Assembly: GCA_963748815.1 (NCBI GenBank)
Contig: CAVVKJ010000010.1
Coordinates: 576,001 to 640,000 of the forward strand
Source of the DNA: an uncultured Gemmatimonadales bacterium
Lineage (GTDB): Bacteria > Gemmatimonadota > Gemmatimonadetes > Gemmatimonadales > GWC2-71-9
Length of the DNA: 64,000 nt
Direction of reading: 5' to 3'
Position numbers and translations under genes: made by a program. The notes beneath the pieces are model-generated. The model did no database searches. It saw only the letters and a list, made by a program, of their open reading frames with translations, and was not told where the DNA came from. Below, one piece after another: positions 987 through 20,196 of this stretch; within the stretch, counting starts at the first letter, position 1, and each line of letters opens with the position of its first letter.

Positions 987-1015
987 ACCCTAGCCGGGTG
1001 GCCCACGGTGGTCAA
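987..1015 (-). promoter_or_regulatory. Candidate sigma70 promoter TTGACC-N17-TAGGGT for the small ORF and tRNA-Val
   Basis: -35 at 1015-1010, 17-nt spacer, -10 at 992-987, 9 nt upstream of ATG 977. Confidence 0.5.
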
Positions 1016-1895
1016 GCGCATTTGCGTCGCTCGGCGGCGCCGGATCAGCCAGCGGCTCCTCGGGCGGATAGGTCCAGTCGAGGTTTAGCGCGGCCCGGCG
1101 CGGGGCGTCCCTGCGGCGGCGGGCCTCGTACCCCAGCGCCACGAGGAGCGCCATCCCGAGCCAGATGCCGGTCCCCAGCAACCAGGTCACGATCCCGAAC
1201 CGGGCCCGCACGCTCTTCCGCCAGGCCTCGTCGAACCGGTCGAGCGTCAACCCGGTCGTGGCCACGACCGCGTCCTCGAAGCCGACACCCTCCCCCAGCC
1301 GCTCGAAGAGCGGTTGCAGGGAGCCCGTTGGATTCCGCCGCGCCAGCTCCATGACCGCCGTGGCGGCCAGGGCATAGGCGGCGTCGGCGGATGGCTGGGA
1401 GGCCCGGAGTTCCCCGTCGAGCGCCCGGAGCCCGGGGATCGTCCCCTTGGCCACGGCGAGGTTGATCCCAACTCGGTCCAGGAGGTCCCACTGTCCGCTC
1501 GCCATCGTGGCGTATCCCTCGTCGAACCAGAGGGGCACTCGGCCGCGCACCGCCTGGTGCAGCGCGAGGTGGGCCAGCTCGTGACGCAGGGTCCCCATCA
1601 CGTCGCCCGCATCGGCGCGGAGTACGATGGTCCGGCCGCCTGGGAAGGCTGCGCCAGCGCCCCACCCCGGGAGCCGCCCACGCGTGAACTCGCGGAACGT
1701 CACCGAGTCGGCGGTGACGACCAGGCGAATCTCCCCGAGGTCGAGGGGACCGAGCCCAGGCCAGGGACCGGGCTGATCGGCGACCTCCGCCAATCCGATC
1801 GCCAGCGCCTCCTGCGCCGGCCAGGCCACGGCGGTTACCCGGCCGACCGTGACCGCGGAGGGCTGCCCCTGCCAGAGGGCCAGCGCGAGAATCAG
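990..1895 (-). CDS. Peptidase MA-like (zincin) metallohydrolase with C-terminal TM helix; probable CTG start at 1895 (ORF track uses GTG 1829)
   Basis: HELAH (HExxH) and downstream PLWFDEGYA third-ligand motif; in-frame upstream LILALALWQGQP begins at a CTG overlapping the TGA of the upstream gene. Confidence 0.8.
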   Translation of the reverse strand: MILALALWQGQPSAVTVGRVTAVAWPAQEALAIGLAEVADQPGPWPGLGPLDLGEIRLVVTADSVTFREFTRGRLPGWGAGAAFPGGRTIVLRADAGDVMGTLRHELAHLALHQAVRGRVPLWFDEGYATMASGQWDLLDRVGINLAVAKGTIPGLRALDGELRASQPSADAAYALAATAVMELARRNPTGSLQPLFERLGEGVGFEDAVVATTGLTLDRFDEAWRKSVRARFGIVTWLLGTGIWLGMALLVALGYEARRRRDAPRRAALNLDWTYPPEEPLADPAPPSDANALDHRGPPG

Positions 1896-2764
1896 GCTGG
1901 CGAATGTCGAGGGATATCTCCTCCCGCGGCGGCCACTTCAAGCAACTCCCGGCACCGCTTGCCCCAGGGGTTGAACTTGTTGGCCTTGTGCCCGTCGGTC
2001 CACGCCTGTCGCGCATCGTCCGCCCGCCCGAGAAACCAGAGCGCCCGGCCCAGTTCGTAGTACGCCTCAATCAGGTTGGGCCCGAGGGCCAGCGCCTTGC
2101 GGAAGAAGGCGTCCGCATCCTCGTACATTTCCCGCTCCTGGTACACCAGCCCCAGGTAGAAGTGCGCGTAGAGCGTGGCCTTCCGGTCGTTGTCCAGGCG
2201 GATGGCACGGGACAGATGCTCGATGGCCTCCCCGAAGATCCCCTTCTTGAGGCAGATATACCCGACGTTGATGCGCGCGAGCGCATTGGCCGGCTCCCGC
2301 ATGAGGACCTTGGAGAAGGTGCCGAGCGCCTCGTCATACTGCTCGGACAGCATCTGGGCCCAGCCGAGGAGCGAGAGCGCCTGCGTATCCTCCGGCGATA
2401 GTGCGAGGGCCTTCTCGAGCGACTGGATGGCCGCGGGGAAGTCGCCCAGGGAGATCAGGCTCCACCCCTTCTCGATGAAGGTGGAAGCGCCGAGGTGATC
2501 GGCCTGCAGGACCGGCCTGGCCCCGGAGAATTGCGGCGCCGCCCCGCCCTCCGCGTCGGCGGACAGCTGCTTATACTGCTCCACCAATCCCCGAATCTGT
2601 TCCTTCAGCGCGGTGAGTTCGCCGAGCGCCCCATCCACGCGCTTGAAATAGGCGACGATGTCGCGCTTGACCGCCTGGCGCTCCCCGCCGGCGGGGCTCG
2701 CGTCGAGCCGGGCGGCGAGCGCGGCGTATTCGTCACGCATGCCGGCGAGCCAGTCCTCGGTCAC
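1892..2764 (-). CDS. TPR protein with N-terminal coiled coil
   Basis: Repeated TPR helices (KGWSLISLGDFPAAIQSLEKALALSP; HFYLGLVYQEREMYEDADAFFRKALALGP); start overlaps the cheW stop. Confidence 0.88.
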   Translation of the reverse strand: MTEDWLAGMRDEYAALAARLDASPAGGERQAVKRDIVAYFKRVDGALGELTALKEQIRGLVEQYKQLSADAEGGAAPQFSGARPVLQADHLGASTFIEKGWSLISLGDFPAAIQSLEKALALSPEDTQALSLLGWAQMLSEQYDEALGTFSKVLMREPANALARINVGYICLKKGIFGEAIEHLSRAIRLDNDRKATLYAHFYLGLVYQEREMYEDADAFFRKALALGPNLIEAYYELGRALWFLGRADDARQAWTDGHKANKFNPWGKRCRELLEVAAAGGDIPRHSPA

Positions 2765-3222
2765 GTGGCGGCGGCCTCGAGCTGGAGGCGTTCCTCGCTG
2801 CTGAAGAGGCGGCCCGCCTGCAGCAGGATGACCGTCCGGTCCTCGAGGGTCAGCACGCCCAGGATGTATTTCGCGGCCAGGCCGCGGACCATGGGCGGCG
2901 AGGGTGCGATCCGGCGGCTGTCCACGCGGAGCACCTCCCGGACTCCGTCCACCACCATCCCGACACGCTGGCCGTCCATCGTGACGATCATGACGCGGGT
3001 CTCTTCCACCTGGGTGGCGGGGAGTTCGAGCCGTTTGCGCAGGTCCACGACCGGCACGACGCCGTCCCCGTACGGAAGGACCCCCTCGAGGAAGTCCGGT
3101 GCGCTGGGCACCGGGGAGGGCGCCTGATACCGGAGGATCCGGTCCACCTGGGAAATTTCCAGGGCGAACTCCTGGCTTCCCCCGCGAAAGATCACCACCT
3201 GAATGTCGTCACCGGTCGTCAT
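2761..3222 (-). CDS. cheW: CheW coupling protein
   Basis: VVIF..G.QEFALEISQVDRIL, PVPSAPDFLEGV, VPVVDLRKRL, VGMVVDGVREV. Confidence 0.93.
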   Translation of the reverse strand: MTTGDDIQVVIFRGGSQEFALEISQVDRILRYQAPSPVPSAPDFLEGVLPYGDGVVPVVDLRKRLELPATQVEETRVMIVTMDGQRVGMVVDGVREVLRVDSRRIAPSPPMVRGLAAKYILGVLTLEDRTVILLQAGRLFSSEERLQLEAAAT

Positions 3223-3653
3223 GGACCGCGCTTCCCCCCCAGGAGTCGGACTCCCAGGGCCTTGAGGTCAAGAATCGGCACCAGCACACCGTCGCGCCGC
3301 GCCACGCCGAGCGCCCAGGGCAGCGACTCTCCCGCGGGGACCGGCACCACCTCCTCGGCGAGCACCGCCTCGGCGCCGTCGACTTCCAGGCAGATCCGCT
3401 GGCGGCCCGCCCGAGCGAGCACTCCCACCGCGCCGACCGTTGCCGGGCAGGCGCCGCCCCAGAGCACCGTCGAGAGGTTCACCACGGGCACCAGGCGTTC
3501 CCGCACCGCCACAACGCCCCGCACCGCCGCATCGGTCGTCGGGACCGGAAAGGTCGTCGCGAGGTCCACGACTTCCAGCACTTCGGCCACTTCCAGGCCG
3601 ACGTCCCGCCCTCCCACCTGCACGAGGAGGTACTGGCAGGTCCCGGCGGTCAC
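3219..3653 (-). CDS. cheW: Divergent CheW-like protein
   Basis: [44 protein letters not shown]. Confidence 0.85.
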
Positions 3654-4696
3654 GCGACGTTCATCCGCGCGAGCAGGGTGGAGACCCGCTCGCCGACATC
3701 GGAGACCGGGAGCACGAGGTCGGCCCCGCCGGCCGCCTGCGCCTCCTTCGGCATCCCGAAAATCGTGGAGCTCTCCTTGTCCTGCGCGATGCCCTTCCCG
3801 CCGGCGTCGTGAATCTGGCGGAGTCCCTCCGCGCCGTCCCGGCCCAGGCCGGTGAGCACGACGCCGATGGCGCGCCGCCCGAACAGCTGCGCCACGGAGC
3901 GAAAGAGGGGATCCGCGGCCGGGCGGACGCCCCAGAGCGGCGGCTCCTGGTCCAGCGCGAGCGCCAGCCCGTCGCTCCCCTCGGTCACTCGCATATGATA
4001 ATCCCCCGGGGCGATGTAGGCGGTGTCGGAGACGAGCGGCGCCCCGTGCTCCGCCTCGACCACCGCCAGGTCGCTCTGCGCCGAGAGTCGCTCGGCCAGG
4101 CTCCGGGTAAACCGGGGCGGCATATGCTGCACGATGACCACCGCCGCGTTGTGGCCGCGGGTGATCCGGGGAACGACCTCCGCCAGCGCGCGCGGGCCGC
4201 CAGTGGACGCCGCGATGGCCACGCAGAAGCGCGCCCGGCCCGGCAGCGCGAAGAGTCCGGCGGGCAGGTCGGGCCGGTTCGGGCGGGCAAGCATCGGCAG
4301 GCGGTAGATGTCCGCCGCGCGCGCGGCCCGCAGCGCCTCGAGCACCCGCGCCCCGAACCGGCCGCGCGAGGCCTCGTCGCGGCCCGCCTCCTTGGCCACC
4401 AGTTCGACCGCGCCGAGCTCGAGCGCGCGGATGGCGCCCGCTGTGCCTGGCCCGGCGTACGAACTGACGACCACGACGGGGCGCGGCGCCTCCGACATCA
4501 GGTAGCCGATGGCCCCGAGGCCATCGAGTTCGGGCATCTCGAGGTCCATGGTCACCAGGTCGGGCTGGTACTCGTGGACCTTTCGAAGCGCGTCCAGCCC
4601 GTTCCGCGCCGTGGTCACCACGCGAAACTCGCCGGAGCCGTCGATGATCTCGGTGAGGAGCCGCCGGATCAGGGCGCTGTCGTCCGCCACGAGCAC
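3650..4696 (-). CDS. cheB: Chemotaxis methylesterase CheB (receiver plus methylesterase); start could extend to ~4714
   Basis: Receiver LVADDS...[14 protein letters not shown]; catalytic [19 protein letters not shown]. Confidence 0.96.
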
Positions 4697-4706
4697 CGTC
4701 GGGAGG

Positions 4707-5195
4707 CTAGAGATGCGTCACTCCCCGGCGGACCGTCGACACTTCAATGCGGCCGTCGGCCACGAAGAGCCGCACCGTGCGTCCGAAGTCGCCGCCGACT
4801 TCGCTCCCGACCAGCGGGATCGCGTGGTGGGCGAGCGCCGCCCGCACCGCCACCAGGTTTCGCTCCCCCATCTGGATGGTGCCGACCGGCTGCAGGTTGG
4901 TGAACATCGACGCGCCGCCGGCGAGCCGCGCGGTGATCCGCGATGCCCGCGCCCCCAGGCCGACCATGTCCTGCAGCAGGAGCGGAATGGCCGTCTGCGG
5001 GAACTTGCCTGGGCTCTGGTCTCGCCGACTGAGCGCGGGCGACGGCAGCAGGATGTGCGCCAGCCCGCCCACCTTCGCCTCGGCGTCGTGGAGCATCACG
5101 GCGACACAACTTCCCAGGCCGATGGTCAGCAGGACATCGCCGTGACCCCCGGCCTTGTATTCCGCCACGTGCACCACAATTTCGCCCGAACTCAT
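4707..5195 (-). CDS. cheD: Chemoreceptor glutamine deamidase CheD
   Basis: [40 protein letters not shown]. Confidence 0.95.
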
Positions 5196-6013
5196 GCCGC
5201 CCTCCGAAAGATGCGTTCACGGGCGTCGACCAGGGTCAGGCGTTCCCGGGCGACGCCCAGCAGCGTTTCGACCTTGCCCAGCACGAGGATGCCGCCGGGC
5301 AGCAGCGCCTCGGCGAACTGCGCGAAGAGCCGTTCCTGCATCGGGCGATCGAAATAGATCACCACGTTTCGGCAGAAGATGAGGTCGTACGCCGCCGAGG
5401 GGATGGGTTCCCGCGTGAGGTCCAGCCGGCGCACCGTGACCATCCGCCGGACGGCCTCGCTGACCTGCCAGGACGCCCCGGCCGGCGTGCAGTACTTCTC
5501 GGTGATCCACGCCGGGGCCTCGAGAAACGCGGCCTGCGGGTAGAGCCCGGCTGCGGCGCGTTCGAGGCTCCCCCGGTCGATGTCCGTGGCGTCGATGCGC
5601 ACCCGATCGGACCAGGAGGGATGCCCGATCGCCGCCGCGGCCTCCGCGCAGAGCATGGCCAGGGTGTACGGCTCCTCGCCGGAGGAGCAGCCGGCGCTCC
5701 AGGCGACCAGCCGCCCGCTCCGCGCCTCGAGCAACCCGGGCAACAAGTCGGTCCGCAGTCGATCCCACGTTTCCGAATTCCGGTAGAAGCGCGTCACGTT
5801 GATGGTGAGCGCATCCTTGAGCTTGTCCCACTCGTCCGGCTTCCGGTCGAGCACCGTCATGTACTCGGCGTACGTGTGCACTCCGCACGCGCGCATCCGG
5901 ACGAGGAGACGGCGCCGGAGACACTTGTCCTTGTAGGCGTCGAGTGTAAGTCCCGCCTCGCGGGACACCCGGCGCGTCAGGGACTTGAACCCCTCCTCGT
6001 CGTCCATGGTCAT
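5192..6013 (-). CDS. cheR: Chemotaxis methyltransferase CheR
   Basis: LTINVTRFYRN, WSAGCSSGEEPYTLAM, ATDID, DLIFCRNVVIYFD. Confidence 0.96.
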   Translation of the reverse strand: MTMDDEEGFKSLTRRVSREAGLTLDAYKDKCLRRRLLVRMRACGVHTYAEYMTVLDRKPDEWDKLKDALTINVTRFYRNSETWDRLRTDLLPGLLEARSGRLVAWSAGCSSGEEPYTLAMLCAEAAAAIGHPSWSDRVRIDATDIDRGSLERAAAGLYPQAAFLEAPAWITEKYCTPAGASWQVSEAVRRMVTVRRLDLTREPIPSAAYDLIFCRNVVIYFDRPMQERLFAQFAEALLPGGILVLGKVETLLGVARERLTLVDARERIFRRAA

Positions 6014-7629
6014 GCCGGCACGTCCAGGATCTCGAGGTTGGAGCGCGCGAGCTGATGGCCGGGGTTCAGCTCGGCGGCCCGGCGCCAGCAGTCCCGGGCC
6101 CGATCGCGATCGCGCTGCCGGAACGCCAGGTTTCCCAGCTTGAAGTAGAGGTCATCGCCGAGGTCGGGCGCCAGCTTGGCGGCGCGATCGAAGGCGGCCT
6201 GCGCATCGTCATACCGCCCCGCGCGGTAGAGCAAGTCGCCCAGGTTCTTCGAAAGCTGGGGGAGGCTCGGCTCGTCGGCGAGCGCCGCGCGGAGCAGCCG
6301 TTCCGCCTCGGGCAGGTCGCCGGTCGCCTCGAGGAGCATCGCGAGATTGTTGCGCAGCACCGGATGCTGGGGCCACGCCTTCACGCCCTCCTGGGCGAGG
6401 GTGACCGCCCGCGGCAGGTCTCCGGCGGACCCCGCGGCGAGGGCGGCCGCCCAGAACCAGAGCGCAGGCACCGGCCGGTTCCCGAGCAGTTCCCGCGCCT
6501 TGGCCAACCGCCCCTCGGCCACCTCGGGGTCTTCTCGCTTGAGCGCGATGACGCCCCAGAGCAACATCGGCCGCGCATCCTCGCGCGCGCGCGACACCGC
6601 CTCCGCACCCGCCGCCTCCGCCTCGGCGAGCCGCCCCGCCCGCTCGAGCGCCAGCGCCAGGTTGTGCAGCCCAGCCGGCCGCGCCCCCCCGAGGTCGATC
6701 GCGCTCTGGAAGGCGGCCACGGCGTCGTCCCACCGCGCCTGCCGCAGCGCGATCAGGCCGAGGTAGAACGGCGCGTTGCCTTCCGCAGGGCGCAAATCCG
6801 CCACGCGGCGAAACTCCCGTTCCGCCTCCTCGAACATGCCGGTCTTGTAGAACGCGATGCCGAGGTTCCGATGCTCCTCCACCCGCGCGTCGTTGACCCG
6901 CTCCGACTGCTGCGTGGCGGAGGTCCCGACGCGGCGGACGAAGCCGGCGGAGAGGAGGCCGTAGATGGCCTTGCCGACCTCGAACTCCACCAGGCCGGAG
7001 GCGTCCACGACGTCCTGCACGTCGTTACGGCCGTTGAGGAGGGTGAGGATGGCCTCCTGCTCGTCGCTGAGCCGGACACCGGCCTCCTGCAGCCGCGGTT
7101 GGTCCACCTCGAACACGATGTCGAGCGTGGGAATCTTCTTGGCGATCAGGCTCCACTCGTCCACCCGCCGCGCCCCTTCGAGAAGCAGCGACTCCGGGTT
7201 GATGGACACCAGGAAGTCCTCGCGCTCCGGCCGCACGCCGGCCTCGAAGTTGAAGGTCCCGCTGCTCCACGTGAAGAGGTAGTACACCGCCTCCTCGACC
7301 TGCACCCGGATGTGGTCCTCGAGTTCGGCGCGGGTGATGTGCCCGAGCTCGACGAGGATCTCGCCGATCTTGCGATCCCGGTCCCCGGCCTGCCGATCCA
7401 CTGCGGCGCGGAGCTGCGCGTCGGTGATCCGCCCGTTGCGGACCAGCAGGTCGCCGATCCGGTCGCGCCGGTTGACGATCGAGGCGTAGATGATCCGGCC
7501 GTCGTCGAAGTAGGTATAGCCGAAGTTCTGCCGGTCGGCGACGGCCAGGCAGCCGGTCTTGCGGCCCAGCGCCAGGAGCTGGATCACGTCGGGGAGGCTG
7601 GCTTCCTTGAGGCTGCCCTTGATGGCCAT
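6010..7629 (-). CDS. DUF4388 (PatA-N-like) domain with MshEN-like insert and C-terminal TPR array
   Basis: MAIKGSLKEASLPDVIQLLALGRKTGCL...FTWSSGTFNF...ESLLLEGARRVDEW; RIGDLLVRNGRI/KIGEILVELGHI; multiple TPRs. ATG 7629 forms a TGATG overlap with the upstream gene. Confidence 0.88.
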   Translation of the reverse strand: MAIKGSLKEASLPDVIQLLALGRKTGCLAVADRQNFGYTYFDDGRIIYASIVNRRDRIGDLLVRNGRITDAQLRAAVDRQAGDRDRKIGEILVELGHITRAELEDHIRVQVEEAVYYLFTWSSGTFNFEAGVRPEREDFLVSINPESLLLEGARRVDEWSLIAKKIPTLDIVFEVDQPRLQEAGVRLSDEQEAILTLLNGRNDVQDVVDASGLVEFEVGKAIYGLLSAGFVRRVGTSATQQSERVNDARVEEHRNLGIAFYKTGMFEEAEREFRRVADLRPAEGNAPFYLGLIALRQARWDDAVAAFQSAIDLGGARPAGLHNLALALERAGRLAEAEAAGAEAVSRAREDARPMLLWGVIALKREDPEVAEGRLAKARELLGNRPVPALWFWAAALAAGSAGDLPRAVTLAQEGVKAWPQHPVLRNNLAMLLEATGDLPEAERLLRAALADEPSLPQLSKNLGDLLYRAGRYDDAQAAFDRAAKLAPDLGDDLYFKLGNLAFRQRDRDRARDCWRRAAELNPGHQLARSNLEILDVPA

Positions 7630-9626: not shown

Positions 9627-10225
9627 GCCGCGGTGTTCCCCGCCGCGAGGCGCTGGAGCACGAGTTCCGAAATCCCCTTGAGCGTCTCGAAGACGCCATG
9701 CCCGTGCAGGCAGTCGGCGCCGAAACTCCGGACGCCGCGGAAATTGAGGGCGTCGTCGAGTTCGGCCGGACTGAGGATCAGGTCCCGCGGGAGGTCTTGC
9801 TTGTTGTACTGGAAGACGACCGGCAGCTGCCGGATGTCGACCCCCTGGGCCAGGAGGTTTTCCTGCAGGTTCTGGAGGCTTTCCACATTGTCGTCGTACC
9901 GCCGGGCCTGGCTGTCGCCGACGAACACCACGCCGTCGGCGCCCTGAAGGACCAGCTTGCGGGTCGCGTTGTAGTACACCTGCCCCGGCACGGTGTAGAG
10001 CTGGAAGCGGGTGGTGAACCCGCTGATGCTGCCGAGATCGATCGGCAGGAAGTCGAAGAAGAGGGTGCGGTCGGACTGCGTGGCCAGCGACACCATCCGG
10101 CCGCGCCGCCCCTCGGGCACCCGGCCGTAGATGTATTGCAGGTTCGTCGTCTTGCCGGACCGCCCAGGTCCGTAATAGACGATCTTGCAGGTGATTTCCC
10201 TGGTCGTGAAGTTGACGAGCGACAT
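9623..10225 (-). CDS. mglA: MglA-family small Ras-like GTPase
   Basis: REITCKIVYYGPGRSGKTTNL, DRTLFFDFLP, LYTVPGQV, GADGVVFV.DSQ, QYNKQDL: near-identical layout to Myxococcus MglA. Confidence 0.95.
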   Translation of the reverse strand: MSLVNFTTREITCKIVYYGPGRSGKTTNLQYIYGRVPEGRRGRMVSLATQSDRTLFFDFLPIDLGSISGFTTRFQLYTVPGQVYYNATRKLVLQGADGVVFVGDSQARRYDDNVESLQNLQENLLAQGVDIRQLPVVFQYNKQDLPRDLILSPAELDDALNFRGVRSFGADCLHGHGVFETLKGISELVLQRLAAGNTAA

Positions 10226-10228
10226 CCG

Positions 10229-11888: not shown

Positions 11889-13035
11889 GGCGTCCTCCCA
11901 ATGCGTCCTTGAGGGTGTGCACGGCGGCGCGCCAGCGGCGCACCGTCTCTTCCCGGCCCCGTTCACCGTCGGGCCAGGACTCCAGCGCTTCCCAGCGCGC
12001 CCAGGCCTCGAGCGCCGCACCGAACTGCGCCCGGCCCGCCTCCGCCAGCCCAAGCAAGCGAAGCGCAGCGGGGGCGTCCGGCTCGCAGCGCAACGCCTGG
12101 TTCAAGCGAAGCACCGCCTCGTCGTACCGCGCCTCCTGCAGCAGCACCCGCCCAAGCACCAGGTGGGCGGCCCCCTCCTCCGGGAAGGCCAGCACCGCCT
12201 CCTCCGCGGTGAAGCGGGCCCGCGCCACCTCGCCGAGCAGCAACGCCTCCTCCGTCGCGGCGACCAGCACCGCCAGGTCGTGCACCGGCGACTCGGCCTC
12301 CTGGCCGGAGGGCGTCGGCTCCGCCACGCCGATGACCCCGGCCGAGGCCAGGCCGAAAAGCGTCCGCGCCACGTCGAAGTCCGACCGCCCCAGCTGTGCC
12401 GCAAGGGAGCGGACGTCGGTCATCCCGTCGATCCCGGCGAGCACCTCCCACTCGAAGGGGAGGAGGTCGAGCTGCCCGCCGTCGTCGGCGGCCGACCCGG
12501 TGAAGCGGGGGATGACGCCGAGGTGCGGGACCTTGGCCTCGATCCGGGACCACTCGTCGATCCGACGGGCCGCTTCCATCAGCAGCGACTCGGTGGGAAT
12601 GCGAATCGTCGCTTCCCCCAACGAGTCGGGGAGCGGCCCGTCCTCGAACGAAAAATAGCCTTCCGACCAGCTCATCAGCTCAAAAATGACCTCCTCGACC
12701 TGGATCCGGATCTGGCGCTCCAGCTCCTTCTTGGGCAGCGCCCCGATTTCCACCAGAATGTCGCCCAGGCGATGCCCAGGTCGCGTGCGCTGGATGGCCG
12801 CCGCCCGGGCGACGTCGTCTTCCCGGACCTTTCCGGTACGGACGAGTAACGCCCCGAGCGGGTGCGGATTGCTTCGAATCTCGGCGGCAATGACGCCGCC
12901 CACGTTGAAGTACACGACCCCCGCGTTCTGGCGCAGCTCGGAGGTGACCCGCAACACCCCTGTCTTCCGGCCCAGGTCGAGTAGCTGGAAGACGTCATGG
13001 ATCTGCAGTTCCTTCAGCGGGCCTTCGATCGGCAC
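11878..13035 (-). CDS. DUF4388 domain with MshEN-like insert and TPRs (paralog of 6010-7629)
   Basis: MPIEGPLKELQIHDVFQLLDLGRKTGVL...MSWSEGYFSF...ESLLMEAARRIDEW; RLGDILVEIGAL. Confidence 0.87.
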   Translation of the reverse strand: MPIEGPLKELQIHDVFQLLDLGRKTGVLRVTSELRQNAGVVYFNVGGVIAAEIRSNPHPLGALLVRTGKVREDDVARAAAIQRTRPGHRLGDILVEIGALPKKELERQIRIQVEEVIFELMSWSEGYFSFEDGPLPDSLGEATIRIPTESLLMEAARRIDEWSRIEAKVPHLGVIPRFTGSAADDGGQLDLLPFEWEVLAGIDGMTDVRSLAAQLGRSDFDVARTLFGLASAGVIGVAEPTPSGQEAESPVHDLAVLVAATEEALLLGEVARARFTAEEAVLAFPEEGAAHLVLGRVLLQEARYDEAVLRLNQALRCEPDAPAALRLLGLAEAGRAQFGAALEAWARWEALESWPDGERGREETVRRWRAAVHTLKDALGGRREQ

Positions 13036-13038
13036 CGG

Positions 13039-15732
13039 TTACTCCGCCGCGGCGGTGAAGATGTGCACCAGGTCCCGCGTCGAGCGGAGCTGGTTGCGCG
13101 CCGCCGAGGCCAGCGCGCCCCCCGGATCGGTGCGCACCACGCGTTCCCACTGGTCCGAGGCCTCGCGGTAGCGTCGGACGCGCACCAGCGCCGCCCCATA
13201 GGCGAGTCGGGCCTGGCCCGCCTCGGGATCGAACCGGAGGACGCGCTCGAACGCCTCGATCGCCTTGTCGGCGCGACCATCCTCGAGCAGCAGCTCGCCG
13301 AGCAGCGTCAGCGCCTCGAGATCCCACGGGTCGGCGCCGAGCAGGGCGATCAGCGGCGCCATCGCGGTCTTCGGCGTGTCGATCCGTCGGAGCAGCCGGG
13401 CGAGGGCGCGCGCCGCCTCGGAGTATGTCGGCAGCAGGTCCAGGGCCCGCTGGAAGGCGAGGCGCGCGCCGGTCCAGTTGCTCCGTTCCTCCTCGAGCGT
13501 TCCCAGTTCAAGCCAGACCTGGACGAGTCCGCTGTCGAGTTGCAGCGCCGCCTGGTACGCGTCGAGCGCGGCTTCCCGCTCGCCGAGGCGGCGGGACACC
13601 CCGGCCTGGAGCTGCAGGAGGTCGGGCCGGCCGGGGGCGCGCGACTGCGCCTCGCGCAGCGCGTCGAGCGCACGGACCGGATCGCCGGTGGCCAGGCGGA
13701 CCCGGGCACAGGCAACAAGCGCCTCGACGTGGTTCGGCGCGAGCTGGGCCAGTCCTTCCGCCCCCGCCGCCGCCTCCTCCGCCCGGTCGAGGGCGAGGAG
13801 GGAGCGGACCTCTCCCAGCAGCGCGTTCACGTCGGCGGGATCGGCGGTGCGCGCCTCGCGATAGCGCTCGAGCGCTTCGCCGTGCAGCCCGCGCTTGCCG
13901 AAGATGTCGCCGAGGAGCACGGCCACCCGGGCGCGGGAGGCGCCGCGGCTGATGGCCCGCGTCAGCTCTGCGGAGGCCAGCTCGAGCAGGCCCTTGCTGA
14001 TGTAGTCGCGCGCGAGCGACAGCGCCGCGTCCTCGGCCGCCGGCGGCGTGGCCGCGACAGGCGCTTCGGGCGCCAGGTCCTCGAAGATGCCCTCGAGCAG
14101 CGTGGCGTCGAAGACGAAGGAGTCGCCGAGGTCGGTCGCCGTCACGTCGGCGCTGATCTCCGGGACGATGGCGATCAGCGGGTCCTCGTACTGCAGGTCG
14201 ATGGAGAGCTGGAACTTCTGTTGGATGTAGTAGGGCTCGAGCTCCAGGGCGCGCTTGGTGGCGCGGAGGGCACCATCGAAATCGCCCAGCTGGCTGAGGG
14301 TGAAGCTCAGGTTGTAGTGCGCCGAGGCGTACTCGGGGGACGCGTCCACCGCGCGGGCAAAGGCGTTCTTCGCGTCCGCGTACCGATGGAGCTCCATCAG
14401 CACGAGGCCGATGCCGTTCCAGGCGGCGGCGTTGGTGGGATGGTCGCCCAGCACGGCGCGATAGGTCTCCAGCGCCGGCTGGAACCGCCGGAGCTGAAAG
14501 AGCAGCAGCGCGAGATTCAGGCGTGGCGCCGCGAGATCGCGCCGGACCTGCAGGGCGGCGCGGAACGCGGCCTCCGCCTCGCCGCTTCCCGGGTCGTGGG
14601 CCAGGAGCACGCCGAGATTGTTCCAGGCGAGCGCGTAGTCGGCGTCCAGCGAGATGGCGTGCTCGTAGGAATCGCGTGCCGCGTCCCGGCGCCCCGCCTG
14701 GTGCAGGCAGACGCCGCGCTCGTTCCAGACCTTCGGCGAGTCGGCGTGCTCCTCGACAAGGGCGTCGTACAACTCCAGCGCCCCGGCGAGGTCCCGCCGC
14801 AGGAGGTGCACCTCGGCCATGGCCTGCAGGGTCAGGCGGCGGTCTTCCCCGTGGTCCAGCGCCATCCGGTACTCGCGGAGCGCCTCGGGGTAGTAGCCCT
14901 TTTGCCGGAAGGCGAGCCCGAGGTTGAAATGCGCCAGCGTGCTGCCCTCGGCGAGCGCGGGACGCATCGAATCGGCCAGCGACTGCCGGCCCGGCATGGA
15001 GCCGTCGTCGGGATGCTCGATGGTGAGGTTGGCCTGGGCGCGCCCGAGGGTGGGATTGAGCGCGATGGCCCGCTTGGTCGAGGCGCGGGCGTCGTCGTGC
15101 AGCCCCATGTCGCCGAGGACGAAGGCCAGGAGGTAGTGCGCGTCGGCGTAGTCGGGGTTGCGGTGCACCGCCTGCCGCAGCGTTTCGAGCGCCGCCTCGT
15201 TCAGCCCGCGGTTGTAAAGCGCCTCCCCGTAGTAGAAGAGCGCGACGGGGCTGTCGGGATCCTGCTCCGCCGCCTGGCGGAACCAGTCCTCCGCCACTTC
15301 CACGCGCCCCCGGGCCTTTTCGGCGAGGCCGAGCTGGAGCAGCGCGGGGATGTCATCGGGGTGCCAGGCGAGGAGTGCCTCGAACTCGGCGACCGCCTCG
15401 TCGGTGTGCCCGAGCGCGGCATAGGCGCGCGCCAGCTCCCACCGGGCTTCCCGGTCGCCGGCCTCGCGGCGGAGCCGCTCGCGGAGTTCCGTGACCCGCT
15501 GGTCGTAGTACCCGCTGGCCCGGTAGGTGATTTCGAGGTTGCCCTGCGCCACCTGCATGCGGGGATCGAGCTCGAGGGCGCGGGAGAATTCGGCGACGGC
15601 CTCGGGGATGAGGCCCTTCTGGTAGTACAGGACGCCGAGGTTGTTGTGCGCCCCGGCGTCGGACGGGTCGATGCGGCGGGCGAACGACCGCAGGACCGCG
15701 AGGTCCCGTTCGGGCAGCGCCGGACCGCCCAT
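13039..15732 (-). CDS. Large multi-TPR scaffold protein (897 aa)
   Basis: Many canonical TPRs (AHNNLGVLYYQKGL, AHFNLGLAFRQKG, AWNNLGVLL, AHYNLSFTL). Confidence 0.9.
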   Translation of the reverse strand: MGGPALPERDLAVLRSFARRIDPSDAGAHNNLGVLYYQKGLIPEAVAEFSRALELDPRMQVAQGNLEITYRASGYYDQRVTELRERLRREAGDREARWELARAYAALGHTDEAVAEFEALLAWHPDDIPALLQLGLAEKARGRVEVAEDWFRQAAEQDPDSPVALFYYGEALYNRGLNEAALETLRQAVHRNPDYADAHYLLAFVLGDMGLHDDARASTKRAIALNPTLGRAQANLTIEHPDDGSMPGRQSLADSMRPALAEGSTLAHFNLGLAFRQKGYYPEALREYRMALDHGEDRRLTLQAMAEVHLLRRDLAGALELYDALVEEHADSPKVWNERGVCLHQAGRRDAARDSYEHAISLDADYALAWNNLGVLLAHDPGSGEAEAAFRAALQVRRDLAAPRLNLALLLFQLRRFQPALETYRAVLGDHPTNAAAWNGIGLVLMELHRYADAKNAFARAVDASPEYASAHYNLSFTLSQLGDFDGALRATKRALELEPYYIQQKFQLSIDLQYEDPLIAIVPEISADVTATDLGDSFVFDATLLEGIFEDLAPEAPVAATPPAAEDAALSLARDYISKGLLELASAELTRAISRGASRARVAVLLGDIFGKRGLHGEALERYREARTADPADVNALLGEVRSLLALDRAEEAAAGAEGLAQLAPNHVEALVACARVRLATGDPVRALDALREAQSRAPGRPDLLQLQAGVSRRLGEREAALDAYQAALQLDSGLVQVWLELGTLEEERSNWTGARLAFQRALDLLPTYSEAARALARLLRRIDTPKTAMAPLIALLGADPWDLEALTLLGELLLEDGRADKAIEAFERVLRFDPEAGQARLAYGAALVRVRRYREASDQWERVVRTDPGGALASAARNQLRSTRDLVHIFTAAAE

Positions 15733-15735
15733 TGA

Positions 15736-16356
15736 TCAGCCGACGCGAATGGCGTCGAAAATGGCCCGCAGCGACGCCAAGTCGGGCAGGAGGAGGAAGT
15801 GCCCCTTCAGGTTGGACGTGTCCCCCTCGAACTGGAACTCGGACTCGACGCAGAAGACGTAGTCGCGCTCCGAGCCGAAGTTGAGGTAGGTCGAGGTCAG
15901 CACCGCGGCGCTGAGGTCCACGACGAGGCTGGGCACCGAGGGCACCAGCATCATCCCCATGAAGTCGCTGAGCGCGTTCAGGTAGGCGCTGCTCAGGATG
16001 TTGCCGACCTCCTTGATGCCCGACTGCTCCATCACGCCGAACTCGGTGGTGGTGCCGGGCGGGCGCCGAAGCAGTATATCGCAGAGGGCGTAGGCGGACG
16101 GTTCCGGGAAGAGGAGGAGGGTCCGCCCGGTCAGGTCGCCCATCATGTGCATCAGGACGGCGGCCACCACTTCCTCGGGGTCGCCGAGGACCTCGGGCAC
16201 TTCCTCGAGCGGCGTGACCGTGACCTCGGGCACGCTGATCATGATCTTCTTGTTGGTCATCTGGGAGAGCGCCGTGGCGGCGTGCCCCGCCCCGATGTTC
16301 GCCACCTCCTTGAGGGCGTCGAACTGGAGCTCCTTCAGATCGCGCACGTCTTCCAT
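15736..16356 (-). CDS. cheC: Chemotaxis phosphatase CheC
   Basis: DALKEVANIGAGHAATALSQM and SGIKEVGNILSSAYLNALSDF (two ExxN active sites); ATG 16356 follows GGAG. Confidence 0.95.
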   Translation of the reverse strand: MEDVRDLKELQFDALKEVANIGAGHAATALSQMTNKKIMISVPEVTVTPLEEVPEVLGDPEEVVAAVLMHMMGDLTGRTLLLFPEPSAYALCDILLRRPPGTTTEFGVMEQSGIKEVGNILSSAYLNALSDFMGMMLVPSVPSLVVDLSAAVLTSTYLNFGSERDYVFCVESEFQFEGDTSNLKGHFLLLPDLASLRAIFDAIRVG

Positions 16357-16366
16357 ACGAGTCTCC

Positions 16367-18334
16367 CTAGACGAGGGCCGCGGCATCCAGGATCAGCGCC
16401 GGCGTGCCGTCCGCGAGGATGGTCGCGCCGCTGAACAGCGGGGCGGTTCCCTTCGGGGCATCGAACGGCTCGACCACGACTTCCTGTTGTCCCATCAGCG
16501 AATCCACCACCACGGCCGACCGACGGTCGCCCACTTCCAGCACCAGCCCGGGCCGCCGCAGGGGAACCTCCCCGCCGTCCACGCCGAGCAGCGCGCGCAG
16601 ATGCACCGTCGGAATGACCCGGTCGCGCAGCACGATGGCCTCGCGCCCGTTGACCTCCGTGGCCGGCTGGGCGTCGAACTCCACCGTTTCCGCCACGTAC
16701 GACAGCGGCAGGAGGTAGCGCTCCGTTCCGACTCGGGCCGTCAGCACCCGCAGGATGGCGAGCGTCAGCGGGAGCCGCAGGGTGAAGGTCGTGCCCGTCC
16801 CGGGCGCGCTCGAGATTTCCACCGCGCCGCCGTGCGCCCGGACCCGGGTCAGCACGACGTCGATGCCGACGCCCCGGCCCGAGACGCTGCTCACCCGTTC
16901 CGCCGTGCTGAACCCCGGCCGGCCGAGCACCTTGAGCAGGAGGTCGTCGGTGAGGGTCTCCACCTCGACGCCGATGACCCCTTCCCGCTTCGCCTTGGCC
17001 AGGATGGCGCGGCGGTCGATGCCGCGCCCGTCGTCCTGGATCCGGATCGCAACGCTGCTGTGTTCGCGGGCCGCGGAGAGCACCAGCCGCCCCTCCGCCG
17101 GCTTCCCGTGCCGCTGGCGCTCCTCGGGGGACTCGAGGCCGTGATCCACCGCATTCCGCAAGAGATGAAGGAGCGGGTCGCCGAGTTCGTCGAGGATGGC
17201 CCGGTCGAGCTCGATGCCCTCCCCCTCCATCTCGAACCGCACCTGCTTGCCCAGCTGGCGGGCGAGGTCCCGGACCGCGCGCGGGAAGCGGTCGAACACC
17301 TGCCAGACCGGAGTCATCCGCGCCTCGATGATTTCCGCCTGCAGGTCCGAGACCAACCGGCTGATCCGCGCCCCGAGCGCCTCGAGTTCGCCGCCGGGGT
17401 CGAGCTGGGCGAGCTCCACCAGCCGGTTCCGGGCGACGACGAGCTCGCCGACCTGGCTCATGAGGGCGTCGAGCCGGCGGCGGTCGACCCGAATTTGCCC
17501 GCTGCGTGCCGAGGGCACGGCCGGCGCCGCGGGCGCGGCTGCCGTGGGGATTCGCCACTCCGCCGTCTGGACGGTATCGGCGTCCACCGCGACGCTGGCG
17601 ATTTCACCGGCCGCCTCGATGGCCGCCACGATCTGCGACTCGCCGATCGGGGCGTCGAGCCGGAAGGTGAAGCGTCCATCGAACCCCTGCCCATCGAACG
17701 ACGCGGCAGGCGGCATCACGCCCGTCACCTTGCCCAGCTGCTCCGCGCGCCGCAGGGCCAGATGGGCCCTCGCGCCGAGGAGCGGCGCGTCCGGCCGGAT
17801 CTCGACGCGAACCACCCGGCCCCCCTCGTCGCCAAAATCCGCCAGCTGGATCGGCATCGACGCGGGGGGTGCCACGGCCGGCTCGGGTTCGGGTGCAGCG
17901 CCCTTCTTCCCTTTGCGCGTTCCCGATTTCCTGGCCGGCGCCGCCTTCACGGTCGAGGCGGTGGCCGCCGCCTCGAGCGCGGCCTGCAGTTCCCCCGCGT
18001 CGAAGCCGGCGTCCGCCCCGGCCGCCGCCTCGTCGACGCCTCGTTCCAGGGCATCGACCGCCTTGAGCAGCAGATCCACCACTTGGGGGCCGCCGGTGGC
18101 GCGCCCACCGCGGATCGCGTCAAGCAGGTGTTCGGTCCGGTGGGCCAGGTCGGCGAGCCGCCCGTACCCCATGGTGGCCGCCATGCCCTTGAGCGAATGG
18201 ATGGCCCGGAACAGCCCGGCCACCGGTTCCGTCGCGCCAGGCTCCCGCTCCCAATCGAGCAGCAGCCGGTTGCAGGTGGTCAGGTGTTCGCGGCTCTCGG
18301 CAAGAAAGAGGGCGGCGTACTTGTTGAGGTCCAT
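16367..18334 (-). CDS. cheA: Chemotaxis histidine kinase CheA
   Basis: Hpt LFRAIHSLKGMA; IRVD..RLDALM; HLLRNAVDHGLE; DDGRGID; PGFSTA; VSGRGVGIDVV; C-terminal CheW domain. Confidence 0.97.
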   Translation of the reverse strand: MDLNKYAALFLAESREHLTTCNRLLLDWEREPGATEPVAGLFRAIHSLKGMAATMGYGRLADLAHRTEHLLDAIRGGRATGGPQVVDLLLKAVDALERGVDEAAAGADAGFDAGELQAALEAAATASTVKAAPARKSGTRKGKKGAAPEPEPAVAPPASMPIQLADFGDEGGRVVRVEIRPDAPLLGARAHLALRRAEQLGKVTGVMPPAASFDGQGFDGRFTFRLDAPIGESQIVAAIEAAGEIASVAVDADTVQTAEWRIPTAAAPAAPAVPSARSGQIRVDRRRLDALMSQVGELVVARNRLVELAQLDPGGELEALGARISRLVSDLQAEIIEARMTPVWQVFDRFPRAVRDLARQLGKQVRFEMEGEGIELDRAILDELGDPLLHLLRNAVDHGLESPEERQRHGKPAEGRLVLSAAREHSSVAIRIQDDGRGIDRRAILAKAKREGVIGVEVETLTDDLLLKVLGRPGFSTAERVSSVSGRGVGIDVVLTRVRAHGGAVEISSAPGTGTTFTLRLPLTLAILRVLTARVGTERYLLPLSYVAETVEFDAQPATEVNGREAIVLRDRVIPTVHLRALLGVDGGEVPLRRPGLVLEVGDRRSAVVVDSLMGQQEVVVEPFDAPKGTAPLFSGATILADGTPALILDAAALV

Positions 18335-18338
18335 GGCG

Positions 18339-18701
18339 TCAGCCGAGGACGCGCTGTACCGCCTCGAGCACCCGGGATGGTTGGAAGGGCTTCACGACGA
18401 AATCCTTGGCGCCGGCCTGGATCGCCTCGACGACGAGGGCCTGCTGCCCCATGGCGCTGCACATCAGGATCCTGGCCTCGGGCGATTCCCGACAGATTTC
18501 GCGGACGGCGTCGATACCGCCCATATCGGGCATGACAATGTCCATGGTGACGAGATCGGGCTTGAGCTGGCGGTACTTCTCGACCGCCTGCACCCCGGTC
18601 TCGGCTTCACCCACCACCTCGAAGCCCGCCTGGGTGAGAATGTCGCTGATCATCGTCCGCATGAAGATGGCATCGTCGCACACCAGGACCGTGTGGCTCA
18701 C
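18339..18701 (-). CDS. cheY: Chemotaxis response regulator CheY (Firmicute/Thermotoga/archaeal style)
   Basis: VLVCDDAIFMR, KPDLVTMDIVMPDMGG, CSAMGQQALVVEAIQAGAKDFVVKPF. Confidence 0.95.
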   Translation of the reverse strand: MSHTVLVCDDAIFMRTMISDILTQAGFEVVGEAETGVQAVEKYRQLKPDLVTMDIVMPDMGGIDAVREICRESPEARILMCSAMGQQALVVEAIQAGAKDFVVKPFQPSRVLEAVQRVLG

Positions 18702-18719
18702 AGGTCAGTCTCCAGGCGT

Positions 18720-19193
18720 CTAAGAGGGTCGTGAAAAGGAGCGGTCGGCGCCGCTGGCGGCGCTGAGCAGTGGTGCCAGCAGCGCCTCGGTATCGAGTAC
18801 CACAAAATGGCGGCCATCCCTGCGTCCAACCGCCTTGACCAGCCTGACATCGACCCCCGGTAGCGCCTCGCGCGCCTCCAACTGGTCGGCCGGGAGTTCG
18901 AAGAGGTCGTCCACCCGCCCCACCGCAAGCCCGAGACGGCGCGTCCCAACATCGACGATCAGCAGGGCGCCCTCGTGCTCGGGCAACCGCGGCCGGTCAA
19001 GCAGGCGATGGGCGTCCACCACGGTCAACAGCGTACCCCGCACGTTCACCAGCCCGATGATGGTATCGGGGGCTCCGGGGATCCGGGTTGTCGGAAGGGG
19101 CGCCAGGATTTCGCGGGCACGGCTGGCGAGCATCCCGCAGGCCAGGTTGCCCACCTGAAATACCACGACGCGCACCGCCTGAGAGTCAGCCAT
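18720..19193 (-). CDS. cheW: CheW coupling protein
   Basis: ATG 19193 MADSQAVRVVVFQVG; TRIPGAPDTIIGLVNVRGTLLTVVD; LGLAVGRV. Confidence 0.9.
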   Translation of the reverse strand: MADSQAVRVVVFQVGNLACGMLASRAREILAPLPTTRIPGAPDTIIGLVNVRGTLLTVVDAHRLLDRPRLPEHEGALLIVDVGTRRLGLAVGRVDDLFELPADQLEAREALPGVDVRLVKAVGRRDGRHFVVLDTEALLAPLLSAASGADRSFSRPS

Positions 19194-20196
19194 CTCTATT
19201 AAAGAAAAGAAGATAGCGAAGAGCCTCGGCGGGAGCAACCGAGATCGAGTCCCCCGCCGCCAGCACCAGGGACGCCTGCAGATCGGCGGGCCATTCCGCC
19301 CGGAATTCGAGGGCCTCTTCGGTGACCGGATGCTTGAACGCCAGCAGTGCCGCATGCAGCGCCTGCCGCGTCGCGGCCCGCTCCACCGCTTCGGCGATCA
19401 GCCGGGCCGACCCCGAGATGCGGCGGCTCCCGCCGGCGCCGTACACCGGGTCGCCAATGACCGGATGGCCGATATGGGCCAGGTGCACCCGAATCTGGTG
19501 GGTCCGGCCCGAGTGCAGCTCCAGCCGGAGGAGGTCGGCCACCTGGAAACGGGCGATGCACCAGGCATCGGTGCGGGCCGGGCGCCCGTCCGCCAGCACG
19601 GCCATCCGCTTCCGATCCCCGGGATGGCGTCCGAGCGGCGCCTCGATTCGGGTCGGGCTCTCGTCGAGGTGGCCCCAGACCAGGGCCGCGTACACCCGGC
19701 GGATCCGGCGGGCGGAGAGCATGTGCCCGAGCCGGCGATGTGCCAGGTCGGTCTTGGCCACCAGCATCAGCCCGGAGGTGTCCTTGTCCAGCCGGTGCAC
19801 GATGCCGGGCCGTCCCTCGGCTCCACCCGAGAGCGTGGTGCCGCGCGCCACGAGGGCGTTGACCAGGGTGTCGTCCCAGTGCCCGGGCGCGGGATGCACG
19901 ACGAGGCCCGCGGGCTTGTCGATGACGGCGAGGTGCTCGTCCTCGTAGATCACCGTGAGCGGGATGTCGGCGGGCCGGATCTGGCGTGGTGGCTCGCCCT
20001 CCGGCAGCGTGACCTCCACCGCGTCGCCGCGGACCAGCAGCCGGGAGGCGCGGGCCACCTTGCCGTTGACGGTCACCCGCTTGTCGGCCACCAGGCGCGC
20101 CGCCTGGGTCCGGGAATACTGGAGCTGATCGGCGAGAAATCGGTCGAGTCGCTCGGTACCGTCGGCGAGGACCGTGAAACGCTGGGGTGCGGTCAT
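19186..20196 (-). CDS. rluD: RluA/RluD-family 23S rRNA pseudouridine synthase
   Basis: S4 domain RLDRFL; DKPAGLVVHP; RPGIVHRLDKDTSG; SGRTHQIRVH; GDPVYG. ATG at 20196. Confidence 0.93.
   Translation of the reverse strand: MTAPQRFTVLADGTERLDRFLADQLQYSRTQAARLVADKRVTVNGKVARASRLLVRGDAVEVTLPEGEPPRQIRPADIPLTVIYEDEHLAVIDKPAGLVVHPAPGHWDDTLVNALVARGTTLSGGAEGRPGIVHRLDKDTSGLMLVAKTDLAHRRLGHMLSARRIRRVYAALVWGHLDESPTRIEAPLGRHPGDRKRMAVLADGRPARTDAWCIARFQVADLLRLELHSGRTHQIRVHLAHIGHPVIGDPVYGAGGSRRISGSARLIAEAVERAATRQALHAALLAFKHPVTEEALEFRAEWPADLQASLVLAAGDSISVAPAEALRYLLFFNRDG
19210..19238 (-). promoter_or_regulatory. Candidate internal sigma70 promoter TTGCTC-N17-TATCTT for the che/mgl cluster, inside the rluD 3' end
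   Basis: -35 at 19238-19233, 17-nt spacer, -10 at 19215-19210, followed by an unusually AT-rich tract before cheW ATG 19193. Confidence 0.5.

Follow-up and report, generated by a model that had tools for sequence, protein, structure and literature searches.

How might a bacterium join a chemosensory pathway to the machinery that sets its cell poles? The question is raised by a gene array in a 64,000-nucleotide (nt) stretch of DNA, here called the window, from an uncultured Gemmatimonadales bacterium (GenBank assembly GCA_963748815.1, contig CAVVKJ010000010.1, positions 576,001 to 640,000). Positions 990-19238 of the window carry 19 minus-strand genes, among which those of a complete Che pathway surround a module containing the Ras-like GTPase MglA and its partner MglB. 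In the order of transcription, these are cheW1-cheY-cheA-cheC, then TPR897-PATAN1-TPR-roadblock-roadblock-mglB-mglA-DnaA2x-PATAN2, and finally cheR-cheD-cheB-cheW2-cheW3-TPR290-peptidase, where TPR stands for tetratricopeptide repeats, PATAN1 and PATAN2 are proteins with a DUF4388/PATAN domain and DnaA2x contains two DnaA-type ATPase modules. We regard the array as a conserved Gemmatimonadales operon through which chemosensory input probably switches cell polarity, or biases it, in surface motility that depends on type IV pili.

The identities of the genes were established with Pfam and NCBIfam profiles, with phmmer searches of the PDB for MglA and with a PDB match for MglB (Table 1). They bear out a preliminary description of this DNA, made from the letters alone, as to the 19 genes, their strand and their order, including the position of the non-Che genes inside the che genes, between cheC and cheR. 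The tight stop/start coupling that it had reported is also present: the 17 junctions from cheW1 through TPR290 measure -20 to +18 nt, with overlaps at 11 of the 17. A gap of 62 nt follows TPR290, and 269 nt separate the peptidase gene from the next open reading frame (ORF). For cheW1, the ATG at 19193 is a likelier start than the TTG at 19238 and overlaps the rluD stop by 8 nt; the ATG at 7629 is a likelier start of PATAN2 than 7638, because the orthologues begin MAIKGSL. CheA with domains P1-P5, CheW, CheY with its phospho-acceptor Asp and the adaptation enzymes are all encoded in the array. No gene for a methyl-accepting chemotaxis protein (MCP) was found within the 19-gene cluster; three are located elsewhere in the same genome.

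Table 1. Genes of the array and its conserved upstream neighbour, in order of transcription (window coordinates)
Gene or product	Position	Strand	Basis of assignment
cheW1, coupling protein	18720..19238	-	Pfam CheW 3.8e-25; likely start ATG 19193
cheY, stand-alone response regulator	18339..18701	-	Pfam Response_reg 2.8e-31; alignment of relatives
cheA, domains P1-P5, no receiver	16367..18334	-	Pfam Hpt, P2, H-kinase_dim, HATPase_c, CheW
cheC, phosphatase of phosphorylated CheY	15736..16386	-	Pfam CheC 4.7e-21; NCBIfam CheC_Thtogales 3.2e-55; motifs
TPR897, 897 amino acids (aa), TPRs only	13039..15732	-	Pfam TPR families
PATAN1: DUF4388/PATAN, degenerate MshEN-like insert, TPRs	11878..13035	-	Pfam DUF4388 9.6e-32; NF053729 32.6 bits (cut-off 38)
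TPR-roadblock: N-terminal TPRs, C-terminal Roadblock/LC7	11037..11888	-	Pfam TPR_2, Robl_LC7 6.4e-5; GTG start 11888
Second Roadblock/LC7 protein, 116 aa	10690..11040	-	Pfam Robl_LC7 5.1e-9; PDB 7f8m 2.2e-6, MglB 1.5e-5
mglB, Roadblock-type GTPase-activating protein for MglA	10229..10690	-	PDB MglB 6h5b_B 1.8e-8; no Pfam match
mglA, Ras-like polarity GTPase	9623..10225	-	PDB M. xanthus MglA 1.1e-70
DnaA2x, 665 aa, two DnaA domain-III AAA+ modules	7629..9626	-	Pfam Bac_DnaA (two) 1e-94; PDB 8bv3 6.6e-52; alignment; model and Foldseek
PATAN2: DUF4388/PATAN, tandem MshEN motif, winged helix, TPRs	6010..7638	-	Pfam DUF4388 8.1e-38; NF053729 47.3 bits (cut-off 38)
cheR, receptor methyltransferase	5192..6013	-	Pfam CheR 8.7e-48
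cheD, receptor deamidase	4707..5195	-	Pfam CheD 1e-26
cheB, receptor methylesterase with receiver domain	3650..4696	-	Pfam CheB_methylest 3.3e-61, Response_reg
cheW2	3219..3653	-	Pfam CheW 1.6e-17
cheW3	2761..3222	-	Pfam CheW 2.8e-31
TPR290, 290-aa TPR protein	1892..2764	-	Pfam TPR families; kept with the polarity module in che-less L052, L058
Peptidase_MA_2 zinc peptidase	990..1829	-	Pfam 1.2e-14; motif and hydropathy
rluD, pseudouridine synthase, conserved upstream neighbour	19186..20286	-	Pfam PseudoU_synth_2, S4; kept in relatives

The order of the array is kept in its relatives. When one genome per species was scanned with the DnaA2x pattern, 36 named loci were obtained, which were compared with the window proteins by tblastn. 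All 19 genes are present in the window order in 20 of the 36, where identities fall to 40-60% in the proteins that evolve faster; 13 consist of colinear parts cut by contig ends, and the remaining three (L032, L034 and L035) are colinear with irregular matches. In L034 (positions 1035-1394), cheY has two in-frame stops and no cheA match was detected; it seems to represent another lineage with decaying che genes. In a second sample, in which each of 40 further genera was represented by a single genome with a DnaA2x-type match, both cheY-cheA-cheC and the adjacency of mglA, DnaA2x and PATAN2 were found in all 40 genera. The whole inner module from TPR897 to PATAN2 is in place in 37 of these genera, the stretch from cheY to cheB in 32, and all 18 genes from cheW1 to TPR290 in 22; cheW2, at about 40% identity, may sometimes have escaped detection. 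In the relatives, where the figures depend on a heuristic choice of start codons, DnaA2x follows mglA within 20 nt in 35/35 cases, PATAN2 overlaps cheR in 30/30, TPR897 follows cheC within 20 nt in 27/30 and the mglB-mglA gap, 3 nt in the window, is at most 20 nt in 40/41. The boundaries between che and non-che genes are as tight there as the remaining junctions. The arrangement, which proved colinear in all related loci that were inspected, far exceeds what chance would produce.

The distribution of the array within the phylum was followed through DnaA2x in 201 genomes, using our own cut-off (best E <= 1e-60), which is clearly above the level of true DnaA. Matches of this type were detected in 95 of the 96 genomes of the window's own family (f1), in 26 of 38 in family f2 (the f2 tallies include one unpublished genome, G157, on which no result hinges by itself), in all genomes of f3 (3/3), f4 (4/4) and f5 (1/1), in 2/23 in f7, and in none of the 35 genomes of families f6 and f8-f12 combined. 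All named DnaA2x relatives and every tandem-size Atlas cluster come from Gemmatimonadota, with the lone exception of a contig labelled Acidimicrobiia (L026), for which a binning error may be responsible. In no fewer than four families, the polarity module has a che block on either side.

Natural variants show which parts of the array can be lost. Among 12 loci picked for unusual DnaA2x or CheA results, two (L052, genus g27, and L058, genus g15) are devoid of che genes and keep the polarity module; rluD runs directly into TPR897 in L052, and in both loci PATAN2 runs directly into TPR290. The che genes of L061 and L062 are decaying. In L051 and L059, from the flagellate genus g45 with three CheA matches, PATAN1 directly precedes mglA and there is no roadblock gene and no cheR; this genus is without all three roadblock genes. 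The most reduced forms, L055 and L056 of family f7, retain only rluD-DnaA2x-PATAN2-peptidase at the same locus, with no mglA there, and the Walker motifs of their second DnaA2x module are degenerate. A receiver-domain match follows the peptidase gene in both (L055:4666-6021, a 452-aa ORF that is 29% identical to CheY over the receiver, and L056:868-1221, 32%).

No MCP was found in any of the five g27 and g15 genomes tested, which have no CheA match, whereas three to six were found in each of five genomes with a complete cluster. Because the MCPs vanish together with the che genes, we assign the dispersed MCPs to the Che system of the cluster. The chemosensory layer disappears as a whole, the polarity module functions without che and the system is modular. 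What survives of the proposal that the array forms a single integrated machine is one conserved, coupled array; integration is not obligatory, as che genes, roadblock genes or all but three genes have been lost in some lineages. In the 40-genus sample, cheR-cheD-cheB are present in 5 of 10 flagellate loci versus 28 of 30 non-flagellate ones, figures that come from relatives which are not independent and from which no statistic was drawn.

In the window's own genome (3.16 Mb, 86% complete), the only CheA is that of the cluster, and every che gene is single-copy and located inside it, making this the sole Che system of the organism. The MCPs, all encoded outside the cluster, comprise a GAF-MCP, a HAMP-MCP whose gene adjoins that of a periplasmic binding protein, and one more. 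The FliG_C, Flagellin_N and FHIPEP profiles gave no match in this incomplete genome. Its pilus genes encode PilB (with MshEN), PilT, a piece of PilC, PilS/R-like proteins, three prepilins, PilM, PilN, PilO and a secretin. PilC (T2SSF) was found only as a 135-aa ORF after PilB-PilT (L049:9963-10370; G000:C5, about 355.9 kb), preceded by a stretch without assignment; this gene for the pilus platform may be frameshifted or wrongly assembled. In the comparison of pili with flagella that the preliminary description had suggested, this genome has pilus genes and lacks matches to three flagellar markers; across the phylum it was less telling, PilM being nearly universal and some flagellates having a single CheA, as detailed below.

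In the CheY of the array, D9, D10, D54, S82 and K104 are invariant, and the aligned relatives are 81-98% identical to the window protein; CheC has both D/S-x3-E-x2-N motifs (at residues 23 and 122). According to Pfam, receiver domains occur in the array only in the single-domain CheY and in CheB, and none is present in CheA. MglA matches its homologues from M. xanthus and T. thermophilus (3.1e-68) over residues 1-196. Its translation, aligned to 5ymx, includes the P-loop GPGRSGKTT (residues 19-27), R53 and T78-V-P-G-Q82; we take R53 to be the intrinsic arginine finger and Q82, in TxxGQ, to be the catalytic residue, in the numbering of M. xanthus. MglB was recognized through a solved MglB structure rather than through Pfam, and two neighbouring proteins match Robl_LC7. 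By inference, TPR897 is a candidate MglA effector or scaffold. Outside the window, the genome encodes a second MglA paralogue (G000:C10:793749-794420; L063:7744-8637, minus strand), 49% identical to the cluster MglA; this 297-aa ORF has an N-terminal extension of about 100 residues and no mglB beside it, and presumably resembles SofG.

From these parts a pathway can be proposed. The three dispersed MCPs would feed CheA through the three CheW proteins and would be adapted by CheR, CheB and CheD; phosphorylated CheY (CheY-P), reset by CheC, would act on the polarity module. It might do so by binding a PATAN protein, by a Rosetta-stone argument from cyanobacterial regulators that combine PATAN with a receiver domain (PATAN-REC), or alternatively by binding MglB or the roadblock proteins, by analogy with FrzX. 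MglB would serve as the GTPase-activating protein of MglA, and the TPR-roadblock and second roadblock proteins may act as an exchange factor or as partners of the MglC kind. In its GTP-bound form, MglA would bring TPR897 and the PATAN-TPR proteins to the pilus motor, and PATAN2 could add an input from cyclic di-GMP (c-di-GMP) via its MshEN insert. DnaA2x might be an ATP-driven switch or an assembly platform that works with PATAN2 and the membrane-anchored peptidase; the joint working of these three is proposed because they persist when all else is lost.

DnaA2x is the least expected member of the array. Each half corresponds to DnaA domain III, as judged by the sequence match to the B. subtilis protein (8bv3) and by the predicted fold, which Foldseek aligned to the same structure with a template-modelling (TM) score of 0.95 and a root-mean-square deviation (rmsd) of 1.4 over 234 columns. 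Among 20 aligned orthologues, module 1 shows no variation in Walker A and B, sensor I, box VII and sensor II, and module 2 keeps the same motif residues save in two f7 genomes, in agreement with the ATPase component suggested at the outset. The helical linker (residues 277-382 in the model) is conserved, with an invariant W296, as is a C-terminal tail, REKxVWxWP, in which E647, W653 and R659 are invariant. The model has a mean predicted local distance difference test score (pLDDT) of 83.3 and a predicted TM score (pTM) of 0.45, and the latter means that the model makes no prediction of how the two modules are placed relative to each other. It shows the tail as disordered, which would suit a docking peptide.

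Several properties set DnaA2x apart from DnaA and Hda, with which it shares the domain-III fold and its motifs: it is a tandem with a conserved linker and tail, it is encoded in a signalling operon, and a separate, true DnaA gene is present on contig C19 of the window's genome. Pfam detected only Bac_DnaA and general AAA models in the protein and neither domain I nor domain IV, which a replication initiator would have; the TIGR00362 match covers model positions 102-335 of 437. Hda is a single AAA+ module with an N-terminal clamp-binding motif, and its model, TIGR03420, scores 162 bits against the DnaA2x tandem, below the cut-off of 194.8. A clamp-binding motif at the N-terminus of DnaA2x is improbable, as that segment aligns to the ordinary start of DnaA domain III. 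Databases nevertheless name the family 'chromosomal replication initiator protein' or 'DnaA/Hda family protein'. The notion that DnaA2x is split into two genes in many genomes was also discarded, most such cases being two high-scoring segment pairs in one open frame. True breaks were found in L053, L009 and probably G198. In L009:10001-12004, an in-frame TGA replaces the G at residue 297 of the window protein, and L053:8817-10819 has a frameshift between the halves; both lie in the linker, so that the modules may work as separate chains, or the breaks may be sequencing errors. Some very long proteins also match the DnaA2x profile (P0211, P0221, P0235, P0241 and P0258, 1084-1420 aa; P0196 and P0201, 1876-1990 aa). 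Five of these long proteins do so in seven to nine separate stretches, which suggests arrays of many DnaA-type modules.

The two PATAN proteins score 110 bits (PATAN1) and 129.6 bits (PATAN2) against DUF4388 (PF14332, cut-off 25), and neither contains Response_reg. The N-terminal domain of PATAN2 has a mean column identity of 74% over 27 sequences and includes, at residues 54-111, two MshEN motifs of 24 residues each. According to PMC5013675, the c-di-GMP-binding MshEN motif is a tandem of the 24-residue pattern RLGxx(L/V/I)(L/V/I)xxG(L/V/I)(L/V/I)xxxxLxxxLxxQ. Over the same 27 sequences, R57 and L62 of motif I are invariant and G59 and Q80 are present in at least 90%; in motif II, K/R87 and L92 are invariant and Q110 is present in at least 90%. 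A c-di-GMP input through MshEN, which the preliminary description had ascribed to the DUF4388-TPR proteins in general, is thus plausible for PATAN2, which passes the cut-off of NF053729; PATAN1 stays below it, and its motif I is degenerate, with P in place of the starting R. The PATAN2 profile also matches the c-di-GMP modules of PilF (2.4e-13), PilB (1.9e-8) and MshE (2.6e-7). In VIA-align comparisons, the PATAN2 model (pLDDT 89.6, pTM 0.78) was superimposed on c-di-GMP-bound MshE with a Z score of 9.5 (rmsd 2.3 over 60 aligned residues, 35% identity) and on PilF GSPIIB with a Z score of 8.0. By profile and model, PATAN2 is plausibly a c-di-GMP receptor acting through this insert.

Residues of about 161-235 of PATAN2 form a winged helix whose best matches are SEA (8adl_S, Z 9.4) and GATOR1 (8fw5_B, Z 9.3), with many ordinary winged helices at Z 5-8. 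For the beta core (residues 1-52 and 125-160) no kin was established; VIA-align matched only the MshEN insert and the winged helix. Foldseek gave no PDB match to PATAN2 at E <= 0.001, the top weak rows being GATOR1/SEA subunits at E 0.07-0.3, and hhalign comparisons of the PATAN core returned probabilities of 0.4% against CheY and 0.1% against the MglB/roadblock alignment. The peptidase is the sole predicted membrane protein of the array, with a hydrophobic C-terminal helix at about residues 211-235; its HELAH motif, at residue 83, is present in 37/37 orthologues.

Other explanations of the array have to be weighed against a chemosensory control of pilus polarity. The Che and polarity genes could be two functionally separate systems that share an operon for co-expression or by history, with CheY not acting on the MglA module. 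In its favour, the polarity module persists without any che gene or MCP in L052 and L058, cheR-cheD-cheB are eroded in flagellates where the module stays, and the array also runs on from the housekeeping genes ileS-lspA-rluD. We consider it improbable in view of the che blocks kept on both sides of the module in several families and of che/non-che junctions that overlap or measure at most 20 nt; moreover, no other plausible output was seen in the non-flagellate genomes whose only CheA is that of the cluster, and Che control of MglA has a precedent in Myxococcus (PMC4316618). An output other than motility appears about equally improbable. Here the Che and c-di-GMP inputs would govern another polar or cell-cycle process, such as the choice of division site or growth zone, adhesion, pilus DNA uptake or polysaccharide export. 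Such a role is suggested by the two f7 genomes in which DnaA2x-PATAN2-peptidase stand alone, by the yggS-divIVA-ileS-lspA-rluD neighbourhood and by the derivation of the ATPase from a replication initiator; however, DnaA2x is without the DNA-binding domain IV and domain I, and in the literature consulted MglA/MglB and PATAN proteins act on pili, gliding and predation (PMC4316618, PMC4546325, 10.1101/2021.06.11.447907). G043, the sole f1 genome without the cluster, is also without PilM and the PilB-PilT tandem (n=1).

Least likely, in our view, is that the array is at root a flagellar chemotaxis system and that the inserted module positions chemoreceptor arrays or flagella, not pili, at the pole. 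No FliG match was found in 74 of the 96 f1 genomes (it was detected in 22, compared with 87 for CheA) or in any of the six genomes of the window's genus (0/5 besides the window's own), and most of these keep che with the closely similar CheY noted above; the own genome is also without flagellin and FlhA matches. Seven flagellate f1 genomes (G045, G122, G165, G198, G067, G136 and G103) have one CheA 6-10 kb from DnaA2x and another 30-86 kb from FliG. Some facts that favour a flagellar origin count at the same time against the pilus-based scheme that we prefer. CheC and CheD are both present, and the best NCBIfam models for the Che core are CheA_Halo, CheY_Halo and CheC_Thtogales, from the CheC/CheD-bearing systems of archaea and Thermotoga, which control flagella or archaella. 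Seven of the 22 flagellate f1 genomes have a single CheA match (G021, G095, G107, G126, G127, G148 and G154); in the flagellate loci with a single CheA that were inspected (L070, L076 and L053), this is the cluster's own, and flagellar control by the cluster CheY is therefore possible there. Further points weigh against the pilus-based scheme. The proposed action of CheY-P on the module and that of MglA-GTP on the pilus motor are drawn from Myxococcus, PatA-type PATAN-REC regulators and gene patterns, which for the CheY step is a weakness, and variants that have no che or no roadblock genes show that the parts are able to function separately. The second CheA is not solely flagellar, because 15 non-flagellate f1 genomes have two CheA matches. 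PilM was found in 191 of the 201 genomes, so that the presence of pili does not discriminate, and 12 of the 38 f2 genomes have PilM and no DnaA2x-type match.

Chemosensory control of pilus polarity remains the reading that we prefer. A bolder form of it, which we hold only tentatively, is that of a self-contained chemotactic polarity device assembled independently of Frz-MglAB-RomR. Its persistent core would be an ATP-driven twin-DnaA switch docked via its C-terminal tail to PATAN2 and the peptidase, and MglA, the three roadblock proteins and Che would plug into it. If this were true, it would be the first case of a replication-initiator ATPase reused as a spatial or signalling switch.

Among described systems, Frz-MglA/MglB(/RomR) of Myxococcus is similar in having a Che-type pathway, MglA and the Roadblock-type MglB, and the extra roadblock paralogues of the window recall MglC. 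Hallmarks of Frz are the CheA-receiver fusion FrzE and the dual-receiver protein FrzZ; in contrast, no Response_reg was found in the CheA of the array, its receivers are CheB and the single-domain CheY, the array has both CheC and CheD, the cluster encodes no MCP, and the PATAN-TPR proteins, the peptidase and the double DnaA-like ATPase are integral parts of it. The two Myxococcus systems are encoded apart (PMC4316618), whereas here they form one coupled operon. The cyanobacterial Tax/Pix systems share a Che-like pathway, the PATAN domain and type IV pili; their PatA-type response regulators differ from PATAN1 and PATAN2, which have TPRs in place of Response_reg, and in the array CheY is separate and MglA, MglB and roadblock proteins are present. 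In the P. aeruginosa Pil-Chp system, ChpA combines numerous Hpt domains with a C-terminal receiver, and PilG and PilH serve as outputs. By Pfam, the cluster CheA has one Hpt, P2 and no receiver, unlike members of this Tfp class, and the module is MglA-based. The likeness to Pil-Chp is one of outline, in that this chemosensory system, too, sets which pole makes pili.

The literature gives several hints of a link between these components. According to bioRxiv 10.1101/2021.06.11.447907, the PATAN domains of PatA-type regulators bind the pilus motor, carrying the output there, and mglA/mglB homologues are regularly encoded near PATAN genes. PATAN-MglA neighbourhoods are reported to have been noted by Makarova et al. 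2006. According to Wuichet and Sogaard-Andersen 2014 (PMC4316618), some group 1 and group 5 mglA genes are located near PATAN genes, and the mglA genes of Myxococcus and Bdellovibrio are not encoded near their partners; Guzzo et al. 2015 (PMC4546325) propose that a chemosensory system acquired MglAB by recruitment during evolution. In the former paper, supplementary file 3 lists GAU_1409 (229 aa) of Gemmatimonas aurantiaca T-27 with the string 'PATAN>MglA>-PATAN>'. This is the pattern of the reduced form in L051 and L059, except that it covers five genes with the middle one unnamed; CheA, CheY and CheW occur 0 times in that file. Beyond this string, our literature searches found no description of the operon, in line with the statement of the preliminary description that no experimental account of the architecture was known; a fuller mention in older comparative-genomics work is possible. 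A Geobacter che paper (PMC2577667) makes no mention of MglA, roadblock, GTPase, PATAN, TPR or DnaA. The array is a real, conserved system for which no experimental description was found and a variant of the known Che-to-MglA polarity circuit, and the twin DnaA-type ATPase is a component class without a described role.

Upstream of the array and on the same strand lie yggS, divIVA, ileS, lspA and rluD. This block (window 20207-25501, minus strand, with a small ORF between ileS and lspA) is continued by the che cluster; the same gene order occurs in Bacillus. DivIVA is a pole-marking protein. A scan of positions 500-20400 for promoters and terminators found no promoter-like site and, on the plus strand, two terminator-like sites, a number below that in shuffled sequences. 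Farther away, the window encodes two paralogous DUF3943 proteins of 547 and 562 aa, about 1.4 kb apart (47965-49608 and 51018-52706, minus strand).

In Myxococcus, whose genes for these parts are dispersed in the genome, the route by which a chemosensory signal reaches MglA is a matter of continuing debate. The present operon, kept across an order, contains the complete set of candidate parts, and a role in steering pili would make Che control of polarity testable outside Myxococcus. Lineages that amount to natural knock-outs (without che, without roadblock genes, or with DnaA2x-PATAN2-peptidase only) indicate how the parts depend on one another. The analysis singles out PATAN2 as a predicted c-di-GMP receptor, and the operon encodes a protein family that is routinely misnamed a replication initiator in databases. 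As the cultured G. aurantiaca has a reduced form on record (GAU_1409), these ideas can be tested at the bench.

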